A stretch of 41,822 nucleotides of DNA. It comes from Candidatus Moraniibacteriota bacterium. Lineage in GTDB: Bacteria; Patescibacteriota; Minisyncoccia; Moranbacterales; GCA-2747515. Shown piece after piece: positions 8,251 to 32,490 of this stretch. The translations under genes and the position numbers were made by a program. Location: positions 1-41,822 of the forward strand of contig JAOZUJ010000002.1 of assembly GCA_029938745.1 (NCBI GenBank), read 5' to 3'. Below the pieces are notes generated by a model. That model saw nothing but the letters and a program-made list of their open reading frames with translations. It was not told the origin of the DNA and did not search any database. Every line of letters starts with the position of its first letter. The stretch's first letter is position 1.

Positions 8251-8853
8251 TTACTTTTGTAAAGTTAAAATAAAGTTTTGAAGTTTTGGTACTTTATTCA
8301 CAATAATGTCATGTGGCGAACTCAAAACCTCAATCAAGAAACGATCCATCATATCCAATCGATACACCAGCTCATCACTCGTCATTGCCATATATCGCAC
8401 TTCCTTACCAACTTCTATTTCAATTACCTCAATTGCCTTTGCTAATTTTGTACGACTCATATCATCACATACGATCAAAATATCAATTCGTGATTTATCA
8501 TAATTGAGAAATATTCCACTCACAAGAATTAATTTTACATTACCAGCATCATTAATTCTTTTCAATTCTTTACATTGTGGATATGTATTTGCCTTAATGA
8601 AAAGATTACGTAATTCTGCATAATATGGGAAAGTCTCGTTAAGCGTAAAATATTTTTCACCCTTGCGCGTTGTCTGACTGATAAATTCGATACGCAAGAG
8701 CGTATTGATATCAGCACGTATGCGTCTTCCATCCATGTTCATCTTTACTTTCAATTCTTTCATCGTTATTTCTTTTCCTGGATTTAACACAAAAAATCGC
8801 AATAGTCTGGAGCGTGACTTTGAACCAAATAAACTCTCTAAAATTTCCGGCAT
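8251..8853 (-). CDS. Putative winged-helix (ArsR-like) DNA-binding protein with a C-terminal nucleotidyltransferase-like domain
   Basis: 200-aa ORF. The N-terminus SRSRLLRFFVLNPGKEITMKELKVKMN resembles a wHTH. The function call is weak. Confidence 0.5.
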   Translation of the reverse strand: MPEILESLFGSKSRSRLLRFFVLNPGKEITMKELKVKMNMDGRRIRADINTLLRIEFISQTTRKGEKYFTLNETFPYYAELRNLFIKANTYPQCKELKRINDAGNVKLILVSGIFLNYDKSRIDILIVCDDMSRTKLAKAIEVIEIEVGKEVRYMAMTSDELVYRLDMMDRFLIEVLSSPHDIIVNKVPKLQNFILTLQK

Positions 8854-9021: not shown

Positions 9022-9050
9022 TTGCATGAACTGCAAATTCTTTGTATACT
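9022..9050 (+). promoter_or_regulatory. Candidate sigma70-type promoter for the 9063 gene
   Basis: TTGCAT (9022-9027), a 17-nt spacer, then TATACT (9045-9050). The -10 lies inside the inverted repeat GTATAC-TGAGA-GTATAC. Confidence 0.4.
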
Positions 9051-9062
9051 GAGAGTATACGA

Positions 9063-11429
9063 ATGCGTATGAAACAAAAAAAGGAAAATTGCACAAATGA
9101 GAACACGTTATTAGATATAAATGTGTCCGATGTTTTTGTTGTAAAAAATGCAAAAAATCGAGCGTTCATTGAACAGTTTAATTATAGTAGCGTTAATTTC
9201 ACGCAGAGAGACCTGGGCACCATACTTGGATTTTTTGCTGTGCGTGACAATACATCTTCATCAGAAAATATTGTCAACTATCTTGCCTCTGAAGTGAAGA
9301 AGCAATATTTCTCACCAATACAAAAACCGATAGGAGATAAGTTTGAATCAACACTACATCATGTTAATCGAGTTTTAGAAGAAATTGCTAATGTTGGCAA
9401 TGTCGAATGGATTGGTCATGTTGATGGCGCAGTGTGTGTCATAGATGATACATCAATTCATATTAGTGTCGCTGGCAATGCACATGTCCTTCTCCTGCGT
9501 GATAATATCTTACAAAATATCAGCGAAGGACTTGCATCTGATGATGCTGCACAATATCCACTCAAAACATTTATCGATATCGCAAGTGGTGAACTCTGTA
9601 CCAATGATAAAATTATTATTACATCACAAGAATTACTTGACCTTATTCCATTTGAAGAATTACAAAAAAATGCTGTTCGTTTTGGACAAGAAAATTTTAT
9701 TCAATTTATACAAACAGTCCTCACAAATGAATGTGAAATCGCCTCAGCAACTATTATTGATATCTCACAAAAAGAAGGTATTCAACCACACAAAATAACA
9801 TCTCCCACAGAAGTTCCGTCAAACATATTTGGTGCGGATGCATTTGATGAACCAAAGGATGATGAAGATATAATTCCTCAAATTGATGACGAAATTGATA
9901 TAGAAGAAATTCTCAATGAAAATCCAGAGGAATATACCGATGAAACAACTGGCCACATTTATATACAAGGTGGTGATGAAATTATTAAAGATGAGACCAC
10001 AATGTCATCATTGAAAGAAAAGTGTTCCGACTTTTTCGATACATGTAAAGACACCACGAAAAAACACAAAAAAACATTTTCAAAAAAAATCACTCAATAT
10101 ACAAGTAAAAAAGATTCATCAATATTTGACCAAGCGCCAGAAGATATTGGAGAAAAAATGACAACCATAGAAACTGTAGAAACTCCTGACACTTACAACA
10201 GTGATGAATTTGATGATGTGGAAGAAGTTGTCACGGATCGTCAAGACCTCACCTCACGCAGTGCAACAAAGAAAATTAGGGTAACAGTATATACTGCATA
10301 CAAAGGAGCTAAAAACATTACCAAGAACACATCTGTGCGTTGTATTGAGACACTAAAACGTATAAAAAATAAAAATCGTACCTCACCATCACAGGTAAGC
10401 CAAAATAGTACACCAATAAATACATCGACGACACAAAAGAAACCTTCATTTTTACCAAGCATCCACCATGTAACACAACTTTGGCACGGCATGACAAAAC
10501 AAACAAAATGGACAACACTCGGCATACTCGCTGCAATTGTAATTATTCCATTAACATTTGCATTTATACCTCGTTCATCAGAAGAAGATGCTGACAAGTG
10601 GCCGGAAATTCCAGAAGAATCAGAACAATACCAACAAGAACCTCTACCACCAGAACCTGCAGTACCTGTGACACAAAATACAATTTCAGATCCAACATCA
10701 TTACTATCTGACCCAACTACTGTTGCAACAACTTTAATGAATGATAAACATATTGGTGTTACAAAAAATACTGTTATCCTTTTTGATGGGACAAAAAAAG
10801 AAGATCATTCATTATCACAAGATGCAGGAGATATCACACTTGTAACGCCGATGGATGATCTCGATCTCTTATTTATTCTCACAACAAAAGATCAATTATA
10901 CACTTTTAGCCCCACTGACAAAAAATTTGTCCAACAAAAGAACACCCCGACATTTGACCATACGAAGATCAAATCACTTAGCACATACATGACATATTTA
11001 TATGCAATGGACACTGCAATGATCACGAGGTACACACGAGCAGAAAATGGATTTGAAAGTGGCAATGATTGGCTCAAAGAAAAAGCCGATTTCACTGACG
11101 CTACAACCATGGCAATCGACGAAGATATTTATACAGCAAAAAATGGTACAATTACAAAATTTAGAAAAGGAGAAAAAGTATCTTTTTCACAAAATTCTGA
11201 CATCAAAAATGCATTTATTATTTACACCACCGAAGACACAAAATTTATGTGGATTCTTGATAAAGAAAACAACAAACTTTTCAAAACAAAAAAATCTACT
11301 GGAGAAAAATTGGATGAATACACACATGAAAAATTTGCAAATACGCAAACTTTGTCTGTAGATGAAAAAAATAACACAGCAACAATTTCGACACCCGAAG
11401 AGATACTTTCATTTGAACTTTCATCGTAA
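9063..11429 (+). CDS. Bitopic membrane protein: degenerate PP2C-like cytoplasmic domain, acidic linker, one TM helix, extracytoplasmic beta-rich domain
   Basis: The ORF-track start at 9042 is TTG and sits on the predicted -10, so I prefer the ATG at 9063 (MRMKQKK). PP2C-like motif order: FAVRDNTSSSENIVNYLAS, VAGNAHVLLLRDN, NDKIIITSQELLD, ATIIDIS. The TM helix WTTLGILAAIVIIPLTFAFIP is at about 10509-10571. Confidence 0.6.
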   Translation: MRMKQKKENCTNENTLLDINVSDVFVVKNAKNRAFIEQFNYSSVNFTQRDLGTILGFFAVRDNTSSSENIVNYLASEVKKQYFSPIQKPIGDKFESTLHHVNRVLEEIANVGNVEWIGHVDGAVCVIDDTSIHISVAGNAHVLLLRDNILQNISEGLASDDAAQYPLKTFIDIASGELCTNDKIIITSQELLDLIPFEELQKNAVRFGQENFIQFIQTVLTNECEIASATIIDISQKEGIQPHKITSPTEVPSNIFGADAFDEPKDDEDIIPQIDDEIDIEEILNENPEEYTDETTGHIYIQGGDEIIKDETTMSSLKEKCSDFFDTCKDTTKKHKKTFSKKITQYTSKKDSSIFDQAPEDIGEKMTTIETVETPDTYNSDEFDDVEEVVTDRQDLTSRSATKKIRVTVYTAYKGAKNITKNTSVRCIETLKRIKNKNRTSPSQVSQNSTPINTSTTQKKPSFLPSIHHVTQLWHGMTKQTKWTTLGILAAIVIIPLTFAFIPRSSEEDADKWPEIPEESEQYQQEPLPPEPAVPVTQNTISDPTSLLSDPTTVATTLMNDKHIGVTKNTVILFDGTKKEDHSLSQDAGDITLVTPMDDLDLLFILTTKDQLYTFSPTDKKFVQQKNTPTFDHTKIKSLSTYMTYLYAMDTAMITRYTRAENGFESGNDWLKEKADFTDATTMAIDEDIYTAKNGTITKFRKGEKVSFSQNSDIKNAFIIYTTEDTKFMWILDKENNKLFKTKKSTGEKLDEYTHEKFANTQTLSVDEKNNTATISTPEEILSFELSS

Positions 11430-12380: not shown

Positions 12381-15300
12381 TTATTCTACTCCACCAACAA
12401 TAAACCAATCAAACTTCACATCAGTTGCTTGCACCTCTGGCATACTCACACGAAACATACCATCCGTAATGTCCACAACAGTAAGATTTATATCAACGGC
12501 GTCTTCACCACGCATCGTTACAAATACATGACCATCTTCCATGATTGCTGTCGTTTGTACTGAAACCTCCGTCTCACCTGTAGAAATTTCTGCTGCACCA
12601 ATTGATGATGCATTTATTTCTTCTCCCGTGTCTTCATCTTCTTGTGTGTTTGTGTCACTAATTGCAAGTGTATTTGTTTGAATGTGTTGTGCTTTCAATA
12701 TTTGTGTTGTCATGATGCCATTGAGCGTAAGCTCTGTAATATCTTGCAAAGTTTCGTTTCCATCTTCATCTATGACCGTTCTTTGTAATGTGTCATCACT
12801 TATAAACATTAGTGCATCTGGATCAATTGTAAGAATCCGTTCATCAATATGCGCAACAACATCTAAACCAACTTCCAATATTTCTAGTCTGTCTTTTATG
12901 TCTGATACAGACCCTATTGCTAAAGTATTTGCATCAACTTGCCCTGATAGAACACTATTGTGTTCATATAGATCTGTGAGACTCAATTGGATATTTGCAA
13001 GATTTTCATCTACTGAATTTTGTAATTGACTGAGGTTTGTTATGTTTGTATCTGTTTGTAGTGTATTTGATGTAATTGTTAGGTTTTGTTCTTTGACTGC
13101 CTCAACTATCAAAGCATCAAATTCAAATGGTAAATATATTGACTTTGCCATTCCATTAATTAATTCTGCATCACCACCTTCTACATCAATTTCACTAACC
13201 CACTGTGGAAACACACCTTCAATATCTTGTGCAATAAATCCAGCATCATGCACATAACCACCATGCTGATCTGGGTTTCTCCAATCAAAATTAACGCCTT
13301 GCAATTGTGTAATTTTTTCTAATGCTTCTGCACCACTAATATTTACAATATTTGTCTTTAATCTCTCATCTGACATTGCAGCCCACGTTCCACTCGTTGT
13401 CTTATATGCTTGATTGGTATCCAAATCAAACTGAAATTTATTTCCAATATACGTACCAAAATTATTATTATATTTGGAGATTCTTACTACATCATAAGAG
13501 ACATAAAGTGCTGCCGAATTATCCCCTGAACCAGCATCCATCATCATGCCTGCGCCAGAGTCATTCGAAGATTTTACTCTAAGCGGTACCGAAGCAGTGG
13601 AATCAATGTCGAGAAAATCCAACCTAGATGTTCCTGCTGGATTCACATAATATGCCGTATTGCCACGATCATAAAAAATATCAGATCGTACATCATTTAA
13701 ATCTGCTCGATACAATCGTGAAGTACTATTTGGATCTAGATAATAACCTGTGCTGTCCCAGTCAATTAACCGATCTGCTAAATAGATATCTGCACCAGAT
13801 GTTGCTGAACTACCTATGCTCAAATGATTGTCCAACATTACTTGCTTACTGCCATAGTTACGAATATATGTAGAGTCTGTCATGCGCCATCCACCACCAT
13901 GAGTTGCACTATACCAACCAGTGTCACCTGTTGTCCGAAGCCATGTATCTGTTCCATTAAGAACCACATTGCCATTCTGTCGCAACCCTCCACTTACCTC
14001 AGCATATCCAGAAGTTTCTAAATTTCCAATAACATCAAGAGCTTGTGATGGGTTTATCTCTCCAATGCCAACATTCCCCGTAAATAGGTCACCCGTAAAA
14101 AAGTTATGTGTTGCTATTCCAACATCATTTCCAATAATCTGAAATTTTTCATTTAAGACTGACCCATCACCTGTAAACTCAATACCGCTACTAATCGTAT
14201 TATTTCTATATAATTTCAAACTTGCATTACCCGAACTAACATGCCCTCCAATATATAATTCTGCGAGATTTGTACCTGTATCTACAACGAGTGATTTATC
14301 GAAATCAAATTCACTATTCGTTGTATCAAAACTTAATATTCCATCATTTGTATTTGTGCCAATATGAAGTGAGCTTGAACTTAAATAAAGATCATTCCAC
14401 CTATTTAACGTAGACCCTAAGTCATTTGTTGTTTGTGATGGAATGAGATTTCCTGTTGCAGTTATTTGCATTCTTTCTGTATTATTTGTACCAAATGCAA
14501 GTCGCGCATTTTCATAATTCCATATCCAACCTACATCATCTGCTTGTGTTATACCTACATACAAACCATCAGATACTGTTATCCCCGAATGATCGGTAGT
14601 AAATATCATGCTTGCATCACCACTACTTGAATTAATATGCAATAAATCTGCTGGAGTTGCTACGCCTATGCCCACATTGCCACTTGATCTATAAACATTA
14701 CCCCCTGATTGTGCCCACGCGCCTGCAGATGTAAGTGAATTCCAGCTACTTCCATTATAACCTTCAAAATCATTTGATAAATATCTTATTGTTCCTGCAT
14801 TTGCATTTGCTGTTGTTCCTATGTTGATTGCACCATCTACTTGCAGTTTTTCATTTGGACTGGATGTGCCTATACCAAAATCACCATCATTAGTAATTCT
14901 CATTTTTTCACTTGCAGTACCGGTACCACTATTCTCCGTAAAAAAAGTGATATCTTTTTCATTACCCATCCAAATAGAACCTTGTCCCTTTACATCATCA
15001 GGTATAGCAAGACCACCCCAATCAGTAACATCCCCATAAATTCCAACAAACAATCCATCAGACGCATCTAGTGTTCCACTTGATTTAGCAATTTGCAACC
15101 AATTTCCTCGATCTGGTAAGCCAGAATTAACCACGAGCGGATATACTGGTGATGTTGTTTTTATTCCTACATTACCACCAAAATAATTTTTTGCAGTAGT
15201 GCTATCTTGATATAACCCATATTTATTTGTCACATTTGCACCACCATCAAGATTTTCAAGAAAAATTCCATAAGAATTTACGATTGTTCCTGTTGGGTTT

Positions 15301-16280
15301 GCAGTATTTGATCCAACTCTACTCCAAATGCCATACTGACTATTTAGCGTTCCTTGAAAATTTGCATCATCTGTAAATCCTTGTATAGCTAATCCAATCC
15401 TATATCCTGATTCTGTTACACCTGATGCAATTGACAAATCATTTGCAATAATATCTACAACCTTACGATAATTTGCGCCATTAGTAGTGATGCTTGGATA
15501 TAATTCTCCTATATCTAGAGTGGTATTAACATTAGGAGCTATTGCTATACCAATTGAATCACCACTTGCATCTAAATGAAATAGATTGGTTACTGTACCG
15601 CCTTCAATTCTAAAATCATTATCACCACCATCCTCATTAAAAATAGCATCCCCCCTCACATCTAATTTTGCATTTGGATCCGTTACCCCAATCCCAACTC
15701 TGCCAGTAGAGACATCAACATGAAGATCATTTCCATGTACTGTGAAATCATCTCCTAGTGTTAGTCCCCCAGCCTTTGTTTGCGCTGTAGACGATGTGTC
15801 TATGTAGTTATCAGCTGTGAGTCCATCTAATCTATGAGAATTAAGAGCAAAACCTGTTGGAGTTATTTTTCTTCTTGGGGACATTGGAGAATTTGTTCCT
15901 ATTTTTACTTCTAAATAATAGTTATCATTAAAATCTAAGTTTAGTGGTTGATCTACTCCTGATTCTCCAATAATTGTTGAGAATATTCCATTTGTTATTG
16001 TTACTGATTTTGTTGCAAAGCTTGAGCAACCTGTTGCAGAACTATTATTTGTCCATAAACATGTTCCATTTGCTGCTGAGTCATATATTGAGAGTGTGAA
16101 GTTGTAATTTCCGTCTGCTACTGCAGTACCTAGTGTTGTATCTGTTAGTTTTCCATGATATGTGAGTTCATTGTCTGGAGCTGCTGTTACTACTGTTGTG
16201 AGTATGATAGAAAACACAAAAAGACCTATTGTATAGGATAGACAATGTTTGATGAGTTTTTTTATGTTTTTATGAGACAT
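12381..16280 (-). CDS. Tail-fibre-like secreted protein with a C-terminal Peptidase-S74-type intramolecular chaperone (self-cleaving) module
   Basis: 1299 aa. The N-terminus is a signal-anchor (IGLFVFSIILTTVVTAAP). GN(V)GIG...P...L.V.G beta-helix-like repeats recur along the protein. AAM-S970-DERL-K975...GVNFDW...GFIAQDIEGVFPQWV matches the endosialidase-chaperone motif. A coiled coil and terminal domain follow. Confidence 0.85.
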   Translation of the reverse strand: MSHKNIKKLIKHCLSYTIGLFVFSIILTTVVTAAPDNELTYHGKLTDTTLGTAVADGNYNFTLSIYDSAANGTCLWTNNSSATGCSSFATKSVTITNGIFSTIIGESGVDQPLNLDFNDNYYLEVKIGTNSPMSPRRKITPTGFALNSHRLDGLTADNYIDTSSTAQTKAGGLTLGDDFTVHGNDLHVDVSTGRVGIGVTDPNAKLDVRGDAIFNEDGGDNDFRIEGGTVTNLFHLDASGDSIGIAIAPNVNTTLDIGELYPSITTNGANYRKVVDIIANDLSIASGVTESGYRIGLAIQGFTDDANFQGTLNSQYGIWSRVGSNTANPTGTIVNSYGIFLENLDGGANVTNKYGLYQDSTTAKNYFGGNVGIKTTSPVYPLVVNSGLPDRGNWLQIAKSSGTLDASDGLFVGIYGDVTDWGGLAIPDDVKGQGSIWMGNEKDITFFTENSGTGTASEKMRITNDGDFGIGTSSPNEKLQVDGAINIGTTANANAGTIRYLSNDFEGYNGSSWNSLTSAGAWAQSGGNVYRSSGNVGIGVATPADLLHINSSSGDASMIFTTDHSGITVSDGLYVGITQADDVGWIWNYENARLAFGTNNTERMQITATGNLIPSQTTNDLGSTLNRWNDLYLSSSSLHIGTNTNDGILSFDTTNSEFDFDKSLVVDTGTNLAELYIGGHVSSGNASLKLYRNNTISSGIEFTGDGSVLNEKFQIIGNDVGIATHNFFTGDLFTGNVGIGEINPSQALDVIGNLETSGYAEVSGGLRQNGNVVLNGTDTWLRTTGDTGWYSATHGGGWRMTDSTYIRNYGSKQVMLDNHLSIGSSATSGADIYLADRLIDWDSTGYYLDPNSTSRLYRADLNDVRSDIFYDRGNTAYYVNPAGTSRLDFLDIDSTASVPLRVKSSNDSGAGMMMDAGSGDNSAALYVSYDVVRISKYNNNFGTYIGNKFQFDLDTNQAYKTTSGTWAAMSDERLKTNIVNISGAEALEKITQLQGVNFDWRNPDQHGGYVHDAGFIAQDIEGVFPQWVSEIDVEGGDAELINGMAKSIYLPFEFDALIVEAVKEQNLTITSNTLQTDTNITNLSQLQNSVDENLANIQLSLTDLYEHNSVLSGQVDANTLAIGSVSDIKDRLEILEVGLDVVAHIDERILTIDPDALMFISDDTLQRTVIDEDGNETLQDITELTLNGIMTTQILKAQHIQTNTLAISDTNTQEDEDTGEEINASSIGAAEISTGETEVSVQTTAIMEDGHVFVTMRGEDAVDINLTVVDITDGMFRVSMPEVQATDVKFDWFIVGGVE

Positions 16281-16478: not shown

Positions 16479-17732
16479 TTAAGACTGTAATGCTTCCATT
16501 GGACTGACTTCTGCAGCTCGCCGTGCTGGATACACACCAAAAATAATGCCAGCAACAATTGAAAAGATAATTGATATCACAACAGCACTTAGTGGAATGA
16601 AAAGATTCATACTCGTAAATCCAGCTTTTTCCAATACAACAAAAAATAGCGAAATCACAATTGACGCAATAATGATACCAATGAAGGCACCCACAACACT
16701 AATGATCACTGATTCAATCACAAATTGCTGTATAACATCTTCACGCCTTGCACCAACTGCTTTACGCAAACCAATTTCAGCAGTTCGCTCTTCGACAGAC
16801 ACGATCATGATATTCATAATTCCAATACCACCAACCAACAAAGAAATTGATGCAAGCGCAATAAGCAAAATATTCACACTAGTTATTACTGATCCAAGCA
16901 TATCTTGAGCTTCTTTCATTGTCATCACATTGAAATCATCGTCTTTTGGATCATCGATATCATGACGAGACCGTAAAATATATTCTATATCCTTAACTGT
17001 ATTATCAATTTGTTTTACATCACGTGCCTTAACTGTAATATATGATAAATAGTCAACACCTAATATCTTTTTTTGCAAAGTTGTGTATGGCAAATAGACG
17101 AGATCATCAAAAGAAAATCCAAACGATGATCCACGCTCTTCTAAAGTGCCAACGACACGATATTTACTACCATCCATGGCAACACGTTTACCAATTATAT
17201 CCCTTTGTTCACCAAACAATGATTCTGCTACAGCCGAGCCAAGTACAATTACATTTGATGATGAAAGCTCTTCATCTGTCGAAAAAAATCTTCCATCATG
17301 TATTTTTACGCCAGGGTCAACGAGAGGTGCGTCAGCACTGGATCCGAGAAGTGTGACATACGTAACTTCACCATCAAATTTTGCTTGTGCTTGTCCCATC
17401 AGTCCTGCGTTGTATGTTTGTACATTATCCAACTTTTTAACTGCCTCTGCATCGTCATCTGTCAGTGTCGTGATCTGCACACCCATTGCCATACTCGAAA
17501 TATTATCCATCGATACATGTTCTGTCTCTGGAATCGATATTTCTATTTGAATGGTATCTGATCCAAATGCATCAATTTCATCCATGATATATTCTTTGAT
17601 ATTCTCCCCCATCGTGATCACGCTCATAATTGATGCTACACTCACAATAATTCCAAGTAACGTTAAAATAGTCCTCCCTGTATGAGAGAATAAATTTTTG
17701 ATTGATATACTAATAAGTCGCCACAATTTCAT
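16479..17732 (-). CDS. MacB/FtsX-type ABC transporter permease (exporter 1, permease B)
   Basis: 417 aa. One N-terminal TM helix, a large extracytoplasmic domain and a C-terminal FtsX module (ASISLLVGGIGIMNIM...EIGLRKAVGARR). Confidence 0.85.
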   Translation of the reverse strand: MKLWRLISISIKNLFSHTGRTILTLLGIIVSVASIMSVITMGENIKEYIMDEIDAFGSDTIQIEISIPETEHVSMDNISSMAMGVQITTLTDDDAEAVKKLDNVQTYNAGLMGQAQAKFDGEVTYVTLLGSSADAPLVDPGVKIHDGRFFSTDEELSSSNVIVLGSAVAESLFGEQRDIIGKRVAMDGSKYRVVGTLEERGSSFGFSFDDLVYLPYTTLQKKILGVDYLSYITVKARDVKQIDNTVKDIEYILRSRHDIDDPKDDDFNVMTMKEAQDMLGSVITSVNILLIALASISLLVGGIGIMNIMIVSVEERTAEIGLRKAVGARREDVIQQFVIESVIISVVGAFIGIIIASIVISLFFVVLEKAGFTSMNLFIPLSAVVISIIFSIVAGIIFGVYPARRAAEVSPMEALQS

Positions 17733-17741
17733 AATATTATT

Positions 17742-18989
17742 TTATTCATAACGCAATGCTTCCATTGGTGAAATACGTGAAGCTTTTCGTGCTGGATAGA
17801 TCCCAAAAAGTAATCCAATAACAAGAGTAATGATCAGTGACACATACGCCATTTGCATTGTGATGATCATATCCCATTCTATGTCATACTGCATCGCAGC
17901 AACCCACGCAAGCCAAATCACAAACAAGCCAACAAAAAATCCAATAAATCCGCCTATAAGTGCGATGATCATTGACTCAAAAAGAAATTGCCACATAATA
18001 TCTCGCCTTCTCGCGCCGACTGCTTTTCTCAAGCCAATTTCACGCACACGTTTTGACAATGCAATGAACATTATATTCATCACGCCAATACCTCCAACAA
18101 TCAGAGAGATCGATGCGACGGCTGTCAAAAAATATTTCATAATATTTGTAACATTATTCACCATAGACAATGCAGACGCAATATTACGCACAGAAAAATC
18201 ATCTCCCTCATCATCAGCAATATCATGTCTTGATCGTAAAACTGTGCGCACATCGTCCTTTGTTTGCTCCACATTTTTTTCATCATCAACTTTCATACGG
18301 ATAAAATTGAGATAATCGATACCAAGTATATTTTTTTGTGCTGTTTGTAATGGGATATATATTGACTCATCATAATTAGCTGCAAATGTTGCACCGCGCT
18401 CTTCCATAATTCCTACAACACGAAATGATTGAGAACCAATTTTTATTTTTTTGCCGAGCATATCCTCATTGTCAAAAATATCTTTTGCAATTTTTGCTCC
18501 AAGTACAACAACCCTCGCTAATGATTCGTCTTCTGCGCTTGTAAAAAATCGTCCAAATGCAATATTACTACCTTCCACATCAAGCATGTCTGCTGAAACA
18601 CCTTGAAATGTCAATGATTTGTCATACGATTTATATTGCACGACATTATTACCAGATACATATCCACTAACGGCAACTGCATGAGGAACATTTGATTTTT
18701 TTCGCAATGCCTCCAAATCACCATTTTTCATTGTTGTTACAACGATCCCATACGTACTTGCTGGTGGCCCATCATCGTCTGCCGCACCTGGTAAAATTGC
18801 AACCAAGTCAGACCCAACATTACGAATTTGATCTAAGATCATATTTTGTGCACTTGTTCCCACGCTCATCACGACCATTACTGCCGCAATACCAATCACA
18901 ACACCAATAATCGTCAAAAACGTTCGCATTTTTGCTGCAAGAAAGTTTTGCATCGTAATTCGTAATGACAATACTATTTGATTTAACAT
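17742..18989 (-). CDS. MacB/FtsX-type ABC transporter permease (exporter 1, permease A)
   Basis: 415 aa, a paralog of the downstream permease (ASISLIVGGIGVMNIM...EIGLRKAVGARR) with the same topology. Confidence 0.85.
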   Translation of the reverse strand: MLNQIVLSLRITMQNFLAAKMRTFLTIIGVVIGIAAVMVVMSVGTSAQNMILDQIRNVGSDLVAILPGAADDDGPPASTYGIVVTTMKNGDLEALRKKSNVPHAVAVSGYVSGNNVVQYKSYDKSLTFQGVSADMLDVEGSNIAFGRFFTSAEDESLARVVVLGAKIAKDIFDNEDMLGKKIKIGSQSFRVVGIMEERGATFAANYDESIYIPLQTAQKNILGIDYLNFIRMKVDDEKNVEQTKDDVRTVLRSRHDIADDEGDDFSVRNIASALSMVNNVTNIMKYFLTAVASISLIVGGIGVMNIMFIALSKRVREIGLRKAVGARRRDIMWQFLFESMIIALIGGFIGFFVGLFVIWLAWVAAMQYDIEWDMIITMQMAYVSLIITLVIGLLFGIYPARKASRISPMEALRYE

Positions 18990-19001
18990 AGCCTAGCTAA
19001 C

Positions 19002-19033
19002 GGTCCAACCGAGGAATGATCCCGGGTTGGACC
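19002..19033 (-). promoter_or_regulatory. GC-rich intra-operon hairpin
   Basis: A 9-bp stem GGTCCAACC/GGTTGGACC with a 14-nt loop, in the 67-nt gap between the ATPase and permease genes. There is no U-tract. Confidence 0.4.
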
Positions 19034-19056
19034 TTTGGTATAAATATAAAACACGC

Positions 19057-19812
19057 TTATTTCAAAATATTATCAGTATCTACAGAGCGCTGATTGTGTA
19101 CTCTTTTATCATCTACGATCTTCCCGTCAACAATCCGTAAAATTCTTTGTGCGTGCTCAGCTGTCCTACTCTCATGTGTGACAAGAATAATTGTGTGACC
19201 CTGTTTATTGAGACCCTCCAAAACATGCATGACTTGTAATCCAGACTTTGAGTCTAGATTTCCAGTTGGCTCGTCTGCAAAAATAATTTTTGGATTATTG
19301 ATCAATGCTCGTGCAATTGCAACACGTTGCTTTTCACCACCAGACAGTTGACTTGGCATATGATGCAACCGGTGTTCCATACTTACACTTTTGAGTGCAT
19401 TCATAACACGATCTTTATTTGTTTTTTTGTCTTCTTTATTTTGTGTAGTTTTTGTATAAAAATCATACAAAAGAGGTAATTCAACATTTTCAAAAACACT
19501 CACGCGTTGCATCAAATTAAATGATTGAAATACAAAACCAATTTCCTGATTACGAATGAATGCCAATTTTTCTTCATCAAAATCTTTTGTATCCTTGCCA
19601 CGAAAAAAATACCCCCCCTCTGTTGCACGATCCAAAAAACTCAACACATGCATTAATGTCGATTTTCCTGAGCCAGACGGACCCATAATTGCAACAAATT
19701 CTCCCTCAGCAATATCACATGACACTCCACGAAGTGCATGTGTTTTAGTTTCGCCTGTATCAAAGACTTTTGTAATATCTTTGCAAGAAATAATTTTTGC
19801 TATTTTTTCCAT
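19057..19812 (-). CDS. ABC transporter ATP-binding protein (MacB/LolD family), exporter 1
   Basis: Walker [10 protein letters not shown], signature [15 protein letters not shown], Walker [13 protein letters not shown] and H-loop VTHE. Confidence 0.9.
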
Positions 19813-19821
19813 AAATTTTCT

Positions 19822-20829
19822 CTACTTATCATCTAGATCTTCATCATAAACAGCATATATAACACTGCCTTCGTTCAAACCATCAACAACTTCAACATCG
19901 CCATCGTCACCTTCAATTCCAGTTGTAATATATTGTTTTGTGTATTGATCATCTACACCTTTTATATAGACATATTCACCAGCATCATCACTGCGCACAA
20001 ATCGTAATGGCACAGTCAGTACATTATTTTTTTGATTAACAACAACATCCACATCCACACTCATACCAGATAAAATATTTTTATCCATATCACCTGGCAG
20101 TGCAAACGTTGTTCTATAATATGTCACATCTTGTACCTTTACTGCCTCCGGATCAATGCTCAAAATATCAACAGAAAACTGTTCATCATTATATGCATCA
20201 AATGTTGCAAATGCTTGTTGTTCTTTATTCATTTTTGCAGCATCTGTTTCAGACATTAATATTTCCATTTCCATTCCATCCTCATCAATCACACGCATTA
20301 CCATTCCTTGTGCGACCTCTCCAACACGGACATTTCTCTGTGTCACAATACCATCAATCGGTGAAATAATTTCTGTATTTTTAAACTGTGACTGCGCTCC
20401 AAAAAGCCTTGTACGTGCTTGAACTACATCTTTTTTGATAAGTTCTCTTTCTTCTGGCTTATAATCACTCCAATGTCTTCGCGCCAATCTTTCTGCCGTT
20501 TCCGCTTTTTCCACATCAATACGAGCTGATTGAATTTCTGCAACAATCGAATTACGATCAAGAATAATAAGCTTTTGCCCCTTTGTAACAGTATCACCAA
20601 TATCTACATTTACCGCCACAACGAGTGCGGGCACGACAAAAGAAAGATTTGCATAATGTACTGGCGTCACCTCACCACTTGCACTTACAGTTTCAACAAC
20701 ATCACCATAATGAACAACATAATTATCAATATCAGATCCATCATTAGACTTCGCATATCGCTGCCAAACAAGCCATGCAACAAAGAGAACAACAATACTA
20801 ATGATTATTATTTTTATAACTTTTTTCAT
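19822..20829 (-). CDS. HlyD/MacA-family periplasmic adaptor (membrane fusion protein), exporter 1
   Basis: An N-terminal TM helix, lipoyl-like halves (GDTVTKGQKLIILD ... ISPIDGIVTQRNVRVGEVA) flanking a coiled-coil hairpin, then C-terminal beta domains. Confidence 0.8.
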   Translation of the reverse strand: MKKVIKIIIISIVVLFVAWLVWQRYAKSNDGSDIDNYVVHYGDVVETVSASGEVTPVHYANLSFVVPALVVAVNVDIGDTVTKGQKLIILDRNSIVAEIQSARIDVEKAETAERLARRHWSDYKPEERELIKKDVVQARTRLFGAQSQFKNTEIISPIDGIVTQRNVRVGEVAQGMVMRVIDEDGMEMEILMSETDAAKMNKEQQAFATFDAYNDEQFSVDILSIDPEAVKVQDVTYYRTTFALPGDMDKNILSGMSVDVDVVVNQKNNVLTVPLRFVRSDDAGEYVYIKGVDDQYTKQYITTGIEGDDGDVEVVDGLNEGSVIYAVYDEDLDDK

Positions 20830-20884
20830 GTATTTCTTTTAGAACTTTATACTACTCATATATCATACCACACTATTACAAAAT

Positions 20885-20912
20885 AAAAACCACAATTTTC
20901 TTTGTGGTTTTT
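20885..20912 (-). terminator. Intrinsic (bidirectional) terminator separating the two exporter operons
   Basis: An 11-bp stem AAAAACCACAA/TTGTGGTTTTT with a 6-nt loop and T-runs on both strands. It lies 21 nt past the stop at 20933. Confidence 0.75.
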
Positions 20913-20932
20913 GTTTTTTCTTCTGAGTGTTA

Positions 20933-21619
20933 CTATTGTGATGATTGCAATTTTCCGTCTTTGAGCCACACAACTCGATCAACATACTTTTTATCATCAT
21001 CTTCATGTGTCACCATTATAATTGTTTGACCATATTTATCTACTAATTCACGCATAATATCCAAAACAACTGCAGCTGCTTCAGAATCTAAGTTTGCTGT
21101 TGGCTCATCAGCAAATAAAATATCTGGTTTATTTATAATTGCACGTGCTATTGATACACGTTGCTGTTCACCACCAGATAATTCTGATGGAAGATTTTTT
21201 TCACGATCCTGCAATCCCACTCTTTTAATAATCTCGTGCACGTCCTTATCATATTGTATTTTTCGTTTTCCAAGTGCTCTCATGGGTAGCGCAACATTTT
21301 CATATAAATTCAACTCAGGAATCAAAGCATAATCCTGAAATACATATCCAAGCATTTTCAAACGAAATTCCGCACGCTCTGTTTCAGATAATTTAGAAAC
21401 ATCAATACCATCAATTTCAATATATCCTGATGTTGGCCGATCGAGTAACGCAATTTGATGTAAAAAAGTTGATTTACCACTACCACTGCGCCCCATAAGT
21501 GCAACAAATTCACCTCTACGCAATTGCACGTCAATATCTTTAAGTGCATAAACTGGGCTTGGTGTATCTGCCTTATATGTCCTTACAAGATCTTTTGTTT
21601 GTAGAATATATTTTTCCAT
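20933..21619 (-). CDS. ABC transporter ATP-binding protein (MacB/LolD family), exporter 2
   Basis: Walker A GRSGSGKST, signature LSGGEQQRVSIARAI, Walker B ILFADEPTANLD and H-loop VTHE. Confidence 0.9.
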   Translation of the reverse strand: MEKYILQTKDLVRTYKADTPSPVYALKDIDVQLRRGEFVALMGRSGSGKSTFLHQIALLDRPTSGYIEIDGIDVSKLSETERAEFRLKMLGYVFQDYALIPELNLYENVALPMRALGKRKIQYDKDVHEIIKRVGLQDREKNLPSELSGGEQQRVSIARAIINKPDILFADEPTANLDSEAAAVVLDIMRELVDKYGQTIIMVTHEDDDKKYVDRVVWLKDGKLQSSQ

Positions 21620-21631
21620 AGTCTTTATTTA

Positions 21632-22852
21632 TTATCGCATCAATGTGAGAATCTTTTTACGTACCTCTTTTATCGCTGGAATGAGTGAGCCTATAAGACC
21701 AGCAACCACAAAAAGAATTACACTCATACGTAGTGCCTCCCTTTTGATCACAGGTACCATATCTCCCATCGGGAAATCAATTGGATGTCCTCTAAAAAAA
21801 CCAATGACACCAAAATTCATTAACAAAAATCCCAATATAATACCGAGTACAGTATAAAACATCCCTCGAATAATATAGGATTGCATTATAGCACTTTCAG
21901 GAATTCCAATCGCTTTCAATATGCCAATTTGTTTACGCCTATTCACAATATCCACAAAGATAATAATAAATATCACAAGTCCTGCAACAAACGAGCCAAT
22001 AATACGTAATATCGAACCAATCATATCAAAGGATTTATTGATTGTAGCACCAAATGACAATTTCTCATTCCAATCAGAAATTTCATAATTACTCAAATTT
22101 ATTTTTGCAAAATCATCCAATGCTTTTTGCGATAAATGCTTATCAGTAAGTCGCACGATAATTTCACTTGACTCATTTGTTGTTCCAAGTACTGAATTCA
22201 GATCATCTTGAAGAACAAACATTTTTGAATCAGTGTCAAAGTTCTTTGTTTTATAAATTCCTACAATTTCATAATCCCTAACAACATCATTACCATATAT
22301 TGCTGTAATTTTGTCACCTGTCCGCACGCCTTCAAGATCCTCTGGAAATGGTGAGCTACCATACCCGCCTGCTATATCTGCACCAAGCAAAGCCTTGCCA
22401 TAATCACCTTTTTCTAAACATTTTCCCTCAATAATATGTGATTTCAAGTCAATTGAATCATTTTCTATTTCTGGATCTATGCCAACAACACCAGCTCCAA
22501 ATTGTGCAACATCCCTACCATCATTATACTTATCATTCTTGAGCGTAGCACTTGTTCGCAAATGAGTTGCTATACTGCGTACATAGTAAAAATCTTGAAT
22601 TGCATCTATGACATCATTTGTATTTTTGATATATTTATCTCCTGGTCTTGGCTCAATAGTTACCTCGCCGTATTGATAATTAATTTTACCCTCATCCATT
22701 GTAGTGGAAATTCCTTTGAACACAGCATCTACAAACAATAAATTCAAAAAAACAACAAGCATGATCAATACTGTCAAAATAAGTGACCCCTTATCACCAC
22801 GCAAAATAGTTTTAATTGCCAAAAATACTGCCAATTTTATATTACTCCACAT
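21632..22852 (-). CDS. FtsX/MacB-type ABC transporter permease, exporter 2
   Basis: 406 aa. One N-terminal TM helix, an extracytoplasmic domain of about 230 aa and a C-terminal FtsX module (QIGILKAIGIPESAIM...). Confidence 0.8.
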   Translation of the reverse strand: MWSNIKLAVFLAIKTILRGDKGSLILTVLIMLVVFLNLLFVDAVFKGISTTMDEGKINYQYGEVTIEPRPGDKYIKNTNDVIDAIQDFYYVRSIATHLRTSATLKNDKYNDGRDVAQFGAGVVGIDPEIENDSIDLKSHIIEGKCLEKGDYGKALLGADIAGGYGSSPFPEDLEGVRTGDKITAIYGNDVVRDYEIVGIYKTKNFDTDSKMFVLQDDLNSVLGTTNESSEIIVRLTDKHLSQKALDDFAKINLSNYEISDWNEKLSFGATINKSFDMIGSILRIIGSFVAGLVIFIIIFVDIVNRRKQIGILKAIGIPESAIMQSYIIRGMFYTVLGIILGFLLMNFGVIGFFRGHPIDFPMGDMVPVIKREALRMSVILFVVAGLIGSLIPAIKEVRKKILTLMR

Positions 22853-22879
22853 ATTGTTTTATATACAAAATACATTGCC

Positions 22880-23869
22880 TTACTTTTCTTGTGGTACAAC
22901 AATTTTTTCACCTGCAGCAATACCAGAAATAACTTCCACAAATTCATTCCCAATTATTCCCTCTTCAAAATATTTTTTCCCAAATTGTTCTTTAACAGAG
23001 TTTGTATTTAACACATATACAAAATATCCATCTTCATCTTTTTGTGCAAAATCACGAGGCACTACTACAACATTCATCTTTTTTTCAATTTCTATATCAA
23101 CTTCTGCATTCATACCATCAAGAATAGTAACATCATCTTTATCATCAATATCAACAATTGCCTTAAAATATGTGTTATTTTGATTTAATGTACTTCCTGC
23201 ATTCATTGAAACAAAAGTACCATGCACCACTTTATCAGGATATGCATCAAAAATTATGAACGATTTATTTCCCTTCTTCACTTTTGCGATATCTACCTCT
23301 GGAATGAGTGCTTCCACCTGTAAGGATTGTGGATTAATAATGCGCATTGCAATTCCTTGTGCTACTTCACCAACTCGAACATTTTGTTCAATTACAATTC
23401 CATCAATCGGAGAAACAATTGTTGTTTTAGCTGCTTGTGCGTACACTTCATTTAGTGTCTGTCGTGATTGCTCTGTTGCTTTTTTAATGCTTTCTCTTTC
23501 CTCTGGTTTTAGTGTGTCCCACTTTCGCCTTGCCTGTTGTTCTGCCAGCTCTGCACGTTCCACTGCAAGCTTTGCATTATTTATTTGTGCATAAATTGAT
23601 CTTTTGTCCAATCGAAATAGCTCTTGACCTTTCTCAACTGTATCATTTACCGATACATCTACAGATGCAATAAGCGTTGGTAATTCTGATGTAATATCGG
23701 CATAAACATCAGAATTCATTGTTGCATTTACATTAATTGTTTTTTGTACATCAGTTGTAACGACTTGTGATTCTAAATAAAGTTGTTCACTTTTTCGTGA
23801 TCGTACAAAAAAAACAGCAGTTCCAATAAGTACAATAATAATAATTGTAATAATAATCTTTTTCATCAT
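22880..23869 (-). CDS. HlyD/MacA-family periplasmic adaptor, exporter 2
   Basis: 329 aa, a paralog of 19822-20829 (VEKGQELFRLD ... VSPIDGIVIEQNVRVGEVAQG) with an N-terminal TM helix. Confidence 0.8.
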   Translation of the reverse strand: MMKKIIITIIIIVLIGTAVFFVRSRKSEQLYLESQVVTTDVQKTINVNATMNSDVYADITSELPTLIASVDVSVNDTVEKGQELFRLDKRSIYAQINNAKLAVERAELAEQQARRKWDTLKPEERESIKKATEQSRQTLNEVYAQAAKTTIVSPIDGIVIEQNVRVGEVAQGIAMRIINPQSLQVEALIPEVDIAKVKKGNKSFIIFDAYPDKVVHGTFVSMNAGSTLNQNNTYFKAIVDIDDKDDVTILDGMNAEVDIEIEKKMNVVVVPRDFAQKDEDGYFVYVLNTNSVKEQFGKKYFEEGIIGNEFVEVISGIAAGEKIVVPQEK

Positions 23870-27974: not shown

Positions 27975-30900
27975 CTATTTCATTTTCACATCACCTTTCA
28001 TTTTCACATCACCTCTTACTTTTATTTGTCTAGGATTTGGAGTTGTAGATGATGTTGTTGTGAAATTTTCTTCGGATCCATAACTTGTCCCTGCACTATT
28101 TGTTGCTTTTGCTCTGACAAAATATGGTGTATTTGGTGTAAGTCCCGTAAGAACACAAGAGTATGTACCAGCATCATCAATGCCAGCACTGCATTCATTT
28201 GTATATGTGCCACTTACTGTTCCCCATTCTATAAACCTCTCCGGATTTTCACCACCCGTATCTGTTACATTTCCATTTCCTGTCGCTGTAGTTGAATTGA
28301 TATTTGTTATTTGATCTGTTGATACCGTTGGAGCGCTTACTGTACAACCTAATCCAGCATCATTAATTGTCCAGCTGTAATTTGAAATAATATTTGCTCT
28401 CTGGGTTGCGCTAGCACAATAGCTTGCTGATGCATCTAAAGTTACTCCATTTTGCAGAGTTTGTGATTCCCAACCTATTAGTGTTGCGTCATAGCTTGCT
28501 GTTGAAAGATCTGAACCTATAAACATATTTGTCATATTTGTCACATTGTCTACGTGCCATGTACCTAAATTTTGATTGAATGCTGAAGCGGATCTAAACA
28601 TAGTGTCCATACGTGTGACGGATGATGTGTCCCATGAGCTTATGTCTTGGTTGAATGCTGAAGCATTGTAAAACATGCCATTCATACTTGTGACAGAGGA
28701 GGTGGCCCAGGAGCTGATGTCTTGGTTAAATAATGGGGTACTGCTAAACATACCCAGCATATTCGTAACGGAAGTTGTGGTCCATGAGCTTATATTTTGA
28801 TTGAATGCTGAAGCACTGCTAAACATACTGGACATATTTGTGACGGAGGATGTATCCCATAAACTTATATTTCCATTAAATGCAGATGCCGCGTTAAACA
28901 TTTGTGCCATATTTGTAACATTTCCCACTTGCCATGAATTCAGATCTTGATTGAATGTGGATGCATGACTAAACATATTAACCATATTTGTAACAGAAGA
29001 TGTATCCCAAGAATTTATATTTTGATTGAATGCTGAAGCGTAGTAAAACATACTGGACATATTTGTGACAGAGGTAGTGGTCCAAGAGGAGATGTCTTGG
29101 TTGAAAACTGTCGCATATTGAAACATGCCATACATATTTGTCACTGAATTTATGGACCAAGAACTTATATCTTGATTGAATGTGGATGCTCCAGAAAACA
29201 TACGGTCCATATATGTGACAGAAGATGTATCCCATGAACTTATATCTTGGTTAAATGCAGATGCATTGTGAAACATAGCTCCCATATATGTGACAGAAGA
29301 TGTATCCCATGAACTTATATTTCCATTAAATGCAGATGCCTCGTAAAATACTTGTGCCATACTCGTAACATTTCCCACTTGCCATGAATTCAAGTCTTGA
29401 TTGAATGTGGTTGCAAGCAAAAACATGCCAGGCATATATGTGACGGATGATGTGTCCCAGGAACCTATATCTTGATTGAATGCAGATGCACCATAAAACA
29501 TATATCTCATATCTGTGATAGAAGATGTATCCCATGAACCTATGTCTTGATTGAAAGCAATTGCATTATTAAACAGCCATGTCATATTCGTGACAGAAGA
29601 TGTGTCCCATGAGCTTATGTCCTCATTAAATACAGATGCAAAAGAAAACATATATGCCATAGTTGTAACAGAAGATAAATCAGGTACATCTGTAAAAGTT
29701 CCTGTCATGTTACTGCATCCTTGAAAAGCCCTATACATTGACGTCCAAATACCTGTTCCCCATTGATCTATTGAGAGAAGTTTTTCTCTGTCACCAGTAT
29801 TGTTAAAATAAATTTGAGGAAATCCAGTCTTAGCTCCCGTGTTATCTTTTATTCTTATTGTATATGTTCCTGCACTTGCGTAATTGCATGTATAATCTCC
29901 CGTTTGGGCCGCTGCCTCATCAATTCCATCATTATTACAATCAACATTATAATTATATCCACCTCCTGTTGTAGGAATTGTGAATTGCGTGTCTGATGAT
30001 GGACCTATATTATCTGTTTTTACTGTTATGACGAAATTATTGTGACTACAATCTAGTCCTGCGTCATTTATTATCCAAGAGTATATTGAAATAATATTTG
30101 CTCTCTGGGTTGCACTGTTACAATAATGTGCCGATGCATCTAGCGTGACATTATTTTGAAGTGATGGACGTGCATTCCAGCCTATGAGTGTCAAATCATA
30201 ATTTGCTATTGAAAGAGCTGAACCTATGAACATGCTTGCCATATCTATCACATTGTCCACATGCCATACACCCAGATCTTGATCGAATGCTGAGGTATTG
30301 CGAAACATAAATGACATATCTGTGACAGAGGAGGTGGTCCAGGAGCTTATGTCTTGATTGAATGCTGTGGCACTGTTAAACATACTGGACATATCTGTGA
30401 CGGAAGTGGTAGCCCAGGAGCTTATGTCTTGATTGAATGCTAGAGCAGCCTGAAACATATGTGACATATCTGTAACAGAGGAAGTGACCCAGGAGCTAAC
30501 GTCCCCATTGAATGCTGAGGCATAATAAAACATATATGACATATTTGTGACGGAAGAGGTGTCCCAAGTGCTGACGTCCCCGTTGAATACTGAGGCACGC
30601 CAAAACATACGATTCATATCTGTGACGGAAGAGGTGTCCCAAGTGCTGACGTCCCCGTTGAATACTGAAGCGTTGTGAAACATACCAGATATATCTGTAA
30701 CAGAAGACAAATCAGGCATATCTGCAAAATTACCAACCACATTATCACATCCATAAAAAGCTCTGTACATACTAGTCCAAATACCTGTACCCCACTGATT
30801 GATATCTAAAAGTTTTTCTCTATCTCCTATGTTATTAAAGTAAATCCTTGGAAATCCAGTTTTTGCTCCTATATTGTCTTTGATTCTTATTGTATACGTT

Positions 30901-32438
30901 CCTGCACTTCCATAATTACATGTGTAATCGCCTGTCTGAGCTGTTGCCTCGTCAGTTCCATCGTTATTACAATCTACATTATAATTATATCCGATTCCTG
31001 TTGTCGGAATTGTGAATTGCGTGTCTGATGAACTTCCTATGTTATCTGTTTTTACTGTTATGACAAAGTCTTTATGAGTACAATCTAAACCTGCATCAGT
31101 TATTGCCCAATTATACGTTGAGATCATATTAGCTCTCTGGGTTGTACTATCACAATAATGTGATGATGAGCGTAGCACTACATTATCTTTGAGTGCCTGT
31201 GATTCCCATCCTATCAGCAACGCATCATAATTTGCTGTCGAAAAATTAGTTGCATTATACAACATCTGACTTGCATGTGTTAAATTACTAACATCCCATG
31301 TACCTAAATTTTGATTGAAAGAAGTAGCCCCATAGAACATGCTATTTGCGTTTGTCAAAGAAGTCGTAGCCCATGAATTTAAAGGTTGATCAAACCTTGT
31401 TGCATTGTAGAACATAAGAGCCATATTTGTTACAGAAGAGGGTGTCCAGGAGTTTAGAGGTTGATTGAATACAGATGTATAACCAAACGTGCCAGTCATA
31501 GTTGTTACGGAAGATACGTCCCATGAACTTATGTCTTGATTAAATGCAGTTGTACTTTGGAACATCCCATCCATATTTATTAAAGAACCTGTATTCCATG
31601 AATTTATCGGCTGATTAAATACTGCTACTCCAAACATATATTGCATATCTGTTACGGAAGATGGCACCCAAGAGTTTAGAGATTGATTAAATGCAGTTGT
31701 CTGATAAAACATATATGCCATATTCGTTACAGAGGATACATCCCATGAATCTATACCACTATTAAAAGAAGTTGCTGCACGAAACATTTGTGACATATTT
31801 GTTACCGATGATGTATCCCAAGAATTTAAATTTTGATTGAACGACGTGGCACTATTGAACATATTCAGCATATTTGTTACAGAAGATACATCCCATGAAT
31901 CTATATCACTATTAAAAGAAGACGCCATTTGAAACATCCCACTCATACTTGTTACAGAAGACAAGTCAGGCGCATCTGAAAAGTTTCCTGTTAAATTTGG
32001 ACAGGATGTAAAAGCATTGGCCATGGAAGTCCAAATCCCCGTGCCCCACTGCTCAATTGTCATTAACTTCGATCGATCGGAACCAGCGTTAATGGCATAA
32101 AATCTCGGAAAACCAGTTTTTGCTCCTGAGTTATCCTTTATTCTTATTGTATATGTCCCTGCACTTGCATAATTACATGTGTAGCCCGCTGTTTGACCTG
32201 TTGCTTCATCTGAACCATCATTATCACAATCAACATTGTAGTTAATCCCAGTTCCCGCTGCCGGTATAATAAAACTTTGACTCCCTACTGGCACCTGCAC
32301 AGTTATCACAAAATCATCTAATGGTGCCGCCTGCACATCATCTACTGTTGCAAAAAATACAAACGACATCGCAAAAAACACCGCCATTAGCAATGGTATT
32401 TGTTTTTTGTTATAACTTTTTTTGAAAAAATTATTCAT
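27975..32438 (-). CDS. Secreted DUF285/BspA-type leucine-rich-repeat surface protein, three tandem modules plus a C-terminal FN3-like domain
   Basis: The ORF-track start at 32480 is GTG, so I prefer the ATG at 32438 ([37 protein letters not shown] is a signal peptide). Each module has an Ig-like head (FVITV...[13 protein letters not shown]...[16 protein letters not shown]) followed by [17 protein letters not shown] 25-aa repeats. The FN3-like region is about 28056-28340. Confidence 0.85.
28521..29678 (-). repeat. In-frame 75-nt (25-aa) DUF285 repeat array, 15 copies (module 3)
   Basis: Hand count gives 15 FN(Q/G)(D/N)(I/L).SW...(S/N)VT.M..MF units here. There are 9 more at about 31266-31958 and 6 more at about 30246-30713. 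Confidence 0.8.
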
Positions 32439-32490
32439 TATTTTTTGTCTATATAAAACCAGATCAATGATACTACCCACATAATGATTA

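Follow-up and report, generated by a model that had tools for sequence, protein, structure and literature searches.

Two proteins encoded in a 41,822-nucleotide stretch of a Candidatus Moraniibacteriota genome (assembly GCA_029938745.1, contig JAOZUJ010000002.1; hereafter the window) ended in the same C-terminal module, in which an S74-type core was followed by a long tail with a coiled coil and a terminal β-sandwich. Protein A (positions 12381–16280; 1299 amino acids, aa) was delimited from the list of open reading frames and its translation and comprised an N-terminal hydrophobic signal or anchor segment, a fibre body with VGIGTxxPxxxL repeats and the S74 module. Protein B (32559–41822; at least 3087 aa) was a giant fibre protein with FG-GAP repeats, VGIGT motifs and the S74 module at its C-terminus. 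Both genes and all their features described below are on the reverse strand, unless stated otherwise. The composite module combines a canonical S74 chaperone/auto-protease and its helical part with a heptad coiled coil of approximately 45–50 aa, a β-hairpin with an acidic linker and a β-sandwich of approximately 85 aa. The domains and their order were the same in both proteins, and they were conserved in a large family distributed in Patescibacteria. With a probability of roughly 0.6, the part added to the chaperone is a scaffold for the trimerisation and registration of very long fibres, and it would be detached by a cut at a conserved serine. We infer trimerisation, registration, cleavage and release from a near-invariant Ser-Lys dyad and from the behaviour of characterised S74 proteins.

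The S74 core and the end of the canonical chaperone

The Pfam family Peptidase_S74 (PF13884) matched residues 970–1028 of protein A (13197–13373; E value 9.8e-16, profile positions 1–57 of 58) and residues 2717–2770 of protein B (33372–33533; E value 8.5e-15). The scores were 58.2 and 55.2 bits, respectively, at a curated cut-off of 22. S970 and K975 of protein A and S2717 and K2722 of protein B fell on profile positions 1 and 6. Since both matches began at profile position 1, both serines lie on the catalytic position of the family model. Ser970, which is predicted to act as the nucleophile and to mark the site of cleavage, was encoded at 13371–13373 and Lys975 at 13356–13358; in protein B, the serine and lysine codons were at 33531–33533 and 33516–33518. 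An earlier note, made from the letters of this DNA alone, had placed the two serine codons at these positions and had taken both residue pairs for the S74 dyad, and the translation and the profile alignment bore this out. The translation of 12381–16280 contained AAM-S970-DERL-K975, GVNFDW and GFIAQDIEGVFPQWV, and the translation of 32559–41681 contained HS-S2717-DKRL-K2722, IYFNW and IGFIAQDVKEIIPEVV. Because the giant open reading frame continued without an in-frame stop from 41681 to the end of the window (41682–41822), the N-terminus of protein B is cut by the contig end, and its 3040-aa translation and residue numbers, including S2717, are nominal lower bounds. The exact sequence of protein B was not found in the protein collection.

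In a 22-sequence alignment, the Ser, Asp and Lys of the dyad region were invariant in all 22 relatives. Among the family members with the same tail, the serine was kept in 73 of 74 and the lysine in 77 of 77. Given this near-invariance, self-cleavage at S970 and S2717 can reasonably be predicted. The region upstream of the serine resembled β-helix structures of mosaic adhesive trimeric (MAT) fibres (8ond, E value 1.2e-11; 8ojn, 8ol4 and 8oml) and phage fibres in a profile match against the PDB. As in other S74 proteins, the core of proteins A and B thus appears to follow a β-helical fibre, which would be trimeric.

S74 was the only family that Pfam found in protein A, and neither protein A nor protein B had a match in NCBIfam. 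The hydropathy of protein A peaked at residue 13, within the N-terminal hydrophobic segment. Outside the tail, the fibre bodies of the two proteins had only short VGIGTxxPxxxL-type motifs in common. The motifs VGIGTSSPNEKL, VGIGVATPADLL, VGIGTTNPTERL and similar ones occurred in proteins A and B and fitted the repeated capping-loop motif of MAT fibres, V-G-G/N-x-x-x-P-x-x-x-L (PMC10769870). In Bdellovibrio, the S74 serine of the MAT fibre Bd3182 is a site of self-cleavage (PMC10769870). Because the VGIGT motifs and the region before the serine match MAT structures and the S74 end of a MAT fibre self-cleaves, proteins A and B are most plausibly cell-surface fibres of the phage-fibre type, like the Bdellovibrio MAT fibres.

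The C-termini of the two proteins aligned with 32% identity over 265 aa (BLASTP, E value 3e-26). MAFFT and profile alignments also matched up their last approximately 100 residues, with the terminal motif VK(F/V)(D/N)W(F/W)IV among them, in agreement with the correspondence proposed from the letters alone. The DNA identity reported there was also present: a 17-mer, GTTTGTATCTGTTTGTA, was found at 13044–13060 (forward strand) with a second copy at 33231–33247, within the stretch encoding LQTDTNI, and such a match arose in 0 of 100 shuffles. The LQTDTNI/QLQ.SVDENL stretch (13020–13090 and 33200–33270) was the best-conserved motif of the whole family and fell at a predicted helix break. Identical amino acids of proteins A and B were encoded by identical codons in 14 of 16 cases in this motif vs 42 of 91 in the remainder of the tail (p = 0.002 by Fisher's test, for a region picked post hoc), which could reflect a short gene-conversion tract or chance.

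S74 domains usually comprise approximately 130–155 aa at the extreme C-terminus. In contrast, 330 and 324 residues followed the serine in proteins A and B, respectively. A profile of the whole module matched solved S74 domains (8jov, 6f45, 7dc3 of MYRF and 3gud) only up to the helix that follows AIKEQ. Among 50,697 phage genomes, 168 records matched the module, and the highest coverage reached was 44% of the query (342 aa; positions 5–154). In one Tequintavirus and one Tlsvirus, the alignment ended at most six bases before the stop codon of the tail-fibre gene or slightly after it. The matches of all PHROG tail-fibre families were confined to module positions of approximately 3–150 and involved the extreme C-terminal part of the family profile. 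As the genes for phage fibres end at this point, the first approximately 137 aa after the serine, from S970 to approximately residue 1108, represent the canonical phage chaperone. Its helical remainder occupies residues 1029–1108 of protein A (12957–13196) and contains AVKEQN and LQTDTNI..QLQNSVDENL; the matches to the PDB, phages and PHROG ended at about this point. Judged by these alignments, approximately 190 aa are truly extra, namely residues 1109–1299 of protein A and the equivalent stretch of protein B.

The tail was thus longer than that of the phage S74 fibres, whose matches stayed within 44% of the module and ended at the phage stop codon, as the earlier note had expected. The long extension that it described is real but shorter than it stated, with approximately 190 of the approximately 270 post-core residues being extra. 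The LQTDTNI...SVDENL stretch, which had been counted with the extension, belongs to the first approximately 80 post-core residues and hence to the canonical chaperone helix.

Structure and distribution of the extra part

The 271-aa post-core region was modelled with AlphaFold2 together with 31 relatives, which resulted in a mean predicted local distance difference test (pLDDT) score of 74.5. The model started with a short helix, broke exactly at LQTDTNIT and continued as a single long helix at extension residues 55–122. The extra coiled coil was assigned to residues 1109–1157 of protein A (12810–12956) based on this long helix, a hydrophobic period of 3.5 in the helical part and matches to coiled coils in the PDB. 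All PDB sequence matches of the extension were to trimeric coiled coils (for example, spike HR1, HA2, P22 gp26, sigma-1 and autotransporter adhesins). The family coiled-coil profile also matched the solved coiled coil of a 93-aa hypothetical protein from Candidatus Giovannonibacteria (7o97; E values 1.8e-4 to 1e-3), on which no paper was found in a search of the open-access literature.

The helix was followed by a β-hairpin at extension residues 130–158 (strands 130–142 and 148–158), in which I, P, D, L, T and G were invariant among the relatives, and by residues 159–183 without regular structure. The hairpin (IDPD...LTLNG) and this acidic, low-confidence linker correspond to residues 1158–1211 of protein A (12648–12809). 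A β-sandwich at extension residues 184–267 was modelled with a pLDDT of approximately 90; when the last 122 aa were modelled on their own, the pLDDT was 82.4. In protein A, the β-sandwich comprises residues 1212–1299 (12384–12647) and ends with VKFDWFIV. For protein B, alignments placed the canonical helix, the extended coiled coil, the hairpin and the terminal β-sandwich at 32562–33371. Its β-sandwich (about 32562–32960) was of a second subtype, IFTTFENNPG...VKVNWWIV, with an insertion loop containing two Cys. The module was acidic, with 62 Asp and Glu vs 14 Lys and Arg in protein A, and lacked a hydrophobic segment (peak hydropathy 1.1–1.45); a transmembrane anchor in the tail was ruled out on the basis of its hydropathy.

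The terminal β-rich part had been considered unexplained by the known chaperone core. According to Foldseek, it resembles the C-terminal β-sandwiches of tailspikes, and it would be of the K1-lyase_C type. The top matches of the terminal domain in the PDB were the C-terminal β-sandwiches of cyanophage Pam1 (7eea), Sf6, Klebsiella phage K64-1 S2-4 and the R2 pyocin fibre, with a root-mean-square deviation of 2.5 Å over 72 columns and 22% identity for 7eea. Several of the top matches among the predicted viral structures of BFVD were proteins with the C-terminal domain of K1 capsule-specific polysaccharide lyase (E values 5e-4 to 1e-3). The Pfam family K1-lyase_C (PF24146) matched 16 of 32 relatives at E ≤ 0.01, with a best E value of 2.1e-7; one relative, P0078, scored 26.3 bits at a cut-off of 27. 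Both the β-sandwich fold and the location at the extreme C-terminus were those of K1-lyase_C.

The family sharing the tail was surveyed by an exhaustive profile search with the post-core region, counting clusters at 50% identity as representatives. The profile retrieved 964 representatives at E ≤ 1e-3, 133 at E ≤ 1e-10 and 13 at E ≤ 1e-30. Word-index homologue searches had returned 2–9 proteins each, mostly fragments, and it was the exhaustive profile search that revealed the family. The extension is therefore not the rarity it had been taken for, but is common in one bacterial lineage: all tail relatives with a source name, as given on eight clusters, were Patescibacteria (Patescibacteria group, Parcubacteria group, Candidatus Moranbacteria or Moraniibacteriota). 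The proteins carrying the tail ranged from approximately 100 to 4231 aa, and the tail was nearly always at the extreme C-terminus. An S74-like domain was detected in 72 of the 88 members of at least 400 aa and started at a median distance of 321 aa from the C-terminus (range 247–542). The remaining long members had the same coiled coil and β-sandwich behind other domains. For example, P0129 (649 aa) had a match to the Pfam Peptidase_G2 chaperone-cleavage domain at residues 218–282, no S74 and the same terminal β-sandwich at residues 567–649, and P0034, P0083, P0112 and P0117 carried the full extension behind non-S74 sequences. Since the extension also occurs behind non-S74 domains, it is a separable cassette, and this separability would fit an autonomous trimerisation unit. 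Two subtypes of the terminal domain were distinguished, IFVTPK...FDWWIV (protein A) vs IFTSFENNPG...VKVNWWIV with a two-Cys loop (protein B and many relatives), and proteins A and B show that both coexist in one genome.

A narrow alignment search of reference genomes yielded one related locus only. In a locus of Candidatus Moranbacteria GW2011_GWC2_40_12 (contig LBYD01000006.1; positions 1–1705 of the locus), an S74 fibre gene was split into three short gene calls, the last of which encoded the 119-aa P0158, and was probably disrupted or misassembled. P0158 had been a candidate for a separately encoded terminal domain; this was ruled out, as it is a piece of the fragmented S74 fibre gene. Two Y1_Tnp (IS200-like) genes and genes for two giant Laminin_G_3 proteins were located downstream of P0158.

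The combination of S74 followed by the extension was seen in no phage genome of those searched. The last 189 aa of protein A had no tblastn match in the phage genome collection even at E ≤ 1, and no relative turned up when IMG/VR was scanned with a pattern, both searches being of limited sensitivity. The coiled coil and terminal domain of one relative, P0089, matched a PHROG tail-protein family (E value 8.7e-7), and coiled-coil-plus-sandwich units may occur in phage proteins, but not behind S74. No description of an architecture combining S74, a coiled coil and a K1-lyase_C-like domain was found in the open-access literature searched.

Possible role of the extra part

We propose that, after export, the C-terminal β-sandwich and the long coiled coil would gather three chains and fix their register. 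The S74 core would then template the folding of the upstream β-helical fibre, which would proceed in the C- to N-terminal direction. On completion of folding, the dyad would cut at the serine, the acidic trimeric module of approximately 330 aa would be shed and the mature fibre tip would be exposed. The extension would be a foldon-like scaffold added to a known chaperone and would serve fibres of approximately 700 to >4000 aa in Patescibacteria.

Several points weigh against this proposal. Trimer formation, cleavage and release are steps that we infer. The E values of the Foldseek matches to solved structures were weak (0.01–0.2), although the probabilities were high. Proteins A and B themselves stayed below the curated cut-off of PF24146 and had no match to it even at E ≤ 10; because they lack a Pfam score, the link to K1-lyase_C rests on the relatives and on the fold. 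In phage tailspikes, the K1-lyase_C-type domain is retained on the mature protein, so its role here might not be that of a disposable scaffold. Finally, ordinary S74 domains fold long fibres without an extension, which is thus not evidently needed. We regard as rather unlikely the broader idea that Patescibacteria evolved their own composite cassette, in which the extra unit is either required for registering and folding attachment fibres of 1000–4000 aa or is a shed extracellular factor in episymbiosis.

Should the tail be retained, the distal end of the fibre would consist permanently of the coiled coil and β-sandwich, with an S74 core that does not cut or that stays bound after cutting. This is an unlikely outcome, even though the homologous β-sandwich of tailspikes belongs to the mature trimer, as also stated in the Pfam description, and some relatives have the extension without any S74. 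Where S74 is present, the almost invariant dyad argues for active proteolysis, and characterised S74 domains dissociate after cleavage (PMC10769870). In addition, a receptor-binding tip would be expected to be more variable than the tail.

Slightly less probable still is that cleavage takes place and the released acidic trimer of approximately 330 aa has a function of its own beyond that of a folding scaffold, for instance as a decoy, a signal or a soluble factor that binds glycans. A separate function would agree with the good conservation of the terminal domain, the coexistence of its two subtypes in one genome, the presence of related β-sandwiches on carbohydrate-active tailspikes and glycosidases, and the occurrence of the extension independently of S74. 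However, no ligand-binding signature and no enzyme family was matched in Pfam by proteins A and B or their relatives, and conservation across very different fibre bodies suits a generic role in assembly better than a specific ligand.

By analogy with MYRF, which has sequence beyond its S74 domain (7dc3) and acts as a release switch, the C-terminal module might anchor the fibre on the envelope of the producer until S74 cleavage releases it. The N-terminal segment of protein A could then be a cleaved signal peptide and not an anchor. We consider this improbable, as the module had no hydrophobic segment, matched no cell-wall-binding family and was strongly acidic.

Genomic setting and comparison with known systems

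The genomic setting of proteins A and B was a cellular contig, not a phage. The window had a G+C content of approximately 35% and contained two tRNA genes and genes for a TPR membrane protein, DUF192, GT4 and GT2 glycosyltransferases, RmuC and FabZ, in addition to two MacB/FtsX-HlyD-ABC cassettes, malic enzyme, thioredoxin and VIT1. No phage structural genes were seen among the genes of the window, and a prophage origin of proteins A and B was ruled out by the context of housekeeping and transporter genes. That both are tail-fibre genes of a phage or prophage and the tail an ordinary feature of phage fibres is therefore highly improbable: an S74 core and a terminal fold of this kind are what phage fibres and spikes typically have, but the neighbours are cellular, no phage genome covered more than 44% of the module, and neither the search with the last 189 aa nor the IMG/VR scan found a phage counterpart.

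Two tandem cassettes of a MacB/FtsX permease, a HlyD-type adaptor and an ABC ATPase (16479–23869, reverse strand) adjoined protein A. Directly downstream of protein B, a 1501-aa protein (27975–32480, reverse strand) was encoded that had 13 repeats of the BspA-like DUF285 and matched fn3 weakly. The GC skew was near 0 over 28–32 kb vs about −0.2 in the rest of the window. A 795-aa protein (9042–11429, forward strand) and a 200-aa protein (8251–8853, reverse strand) had no Pfam match.

Patescibacteria are mostly uncultured, have tiny genomes and in many cases are attached to other cells. Giant surface proteins make up a large share of their genomes. Many of these proteins proved to be phage-fibre-like, with a conserved, probably self-removing C-terminal assembly cassette. 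In practical terms, the cassette would provide a handle for annotation, define the position of cleavage from which the mature fibre tip can be predicted and offer a compact construct for testing S74 chaperone function with an attached extra trimerisation unit. The known domain contexts of S74 and of the K1-lyase_C-type domain are extended. All building blocks were known before, and the result is a refinement and not a new principle.

Proteins A and B share with the phage S74 chaperones (K1F endosialidase, T5 pb1, GA-1 neck appendage and S16 gp37) the Pfam family, a domain that opens with the S-D-x-R-L-K dyad, the GFIAQ..P..V core and the helix that follows it. While the phage domains end approximately 100–150 residues after the serine at the stop codon, proteins A and B add approximately 190 residues with a coiled coil, a hairpin and a β-sandwich. 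The S74 subgroup of the MAT fibres of Bdellovibrio bacteriovorus likewise consists of long cellular fibres in which motifs of the VGxGxxPxxxL type are combined with an S74 domain at the end. MAT fibres begin with a signal peptide and a conserved β-rich domain of approximately 130 aa; the N-terminal hydrophobic segment of protein A may correspond to this signal. The chaperone of Bd3182 comprises 141 aa (S782–922) and is not followed by a β-sandwich. In the non-S74 MATs, a β-sandwich replaces S74, whereas proteins A and B have both in tandem; they also belong to a different lineage, the Patescibacteria.

Tailspikes with K1-lyase_C (PF24146), such as those of the Klebsiella phage K1 lyase, Sf6, Pam1 and K64-1 S2-4, have a small β-sandwich at the extreme C-terminus, as do proteins A and B. 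In the tailspikes it directly follows the catalytic β-helix, whereas here it is preceded by a long coiled coil and, further upstream, by an S74 site predicted to self-cleave. The intramolecular chaperone auto-processing (ICA) domain of MYRF (7dc3) is another S74-type domain that is not at the extreme C-terminus and whose cleavage separates two functional parts. In MYRF, however, the domain is followed by a transmembrane helix and then a luminal domain, whereas in proteins A and B a coiled coil and β-sandwich without a hydrophobic segment follow. The foldon of T4 fibritin, a small C-terminal unit of 27 aa at which trimerisation is nucleated and which aligns the chains of a long fibre in register, is not removed; the extension proposed here as a detachable scaffold would resemble it in working principle only.

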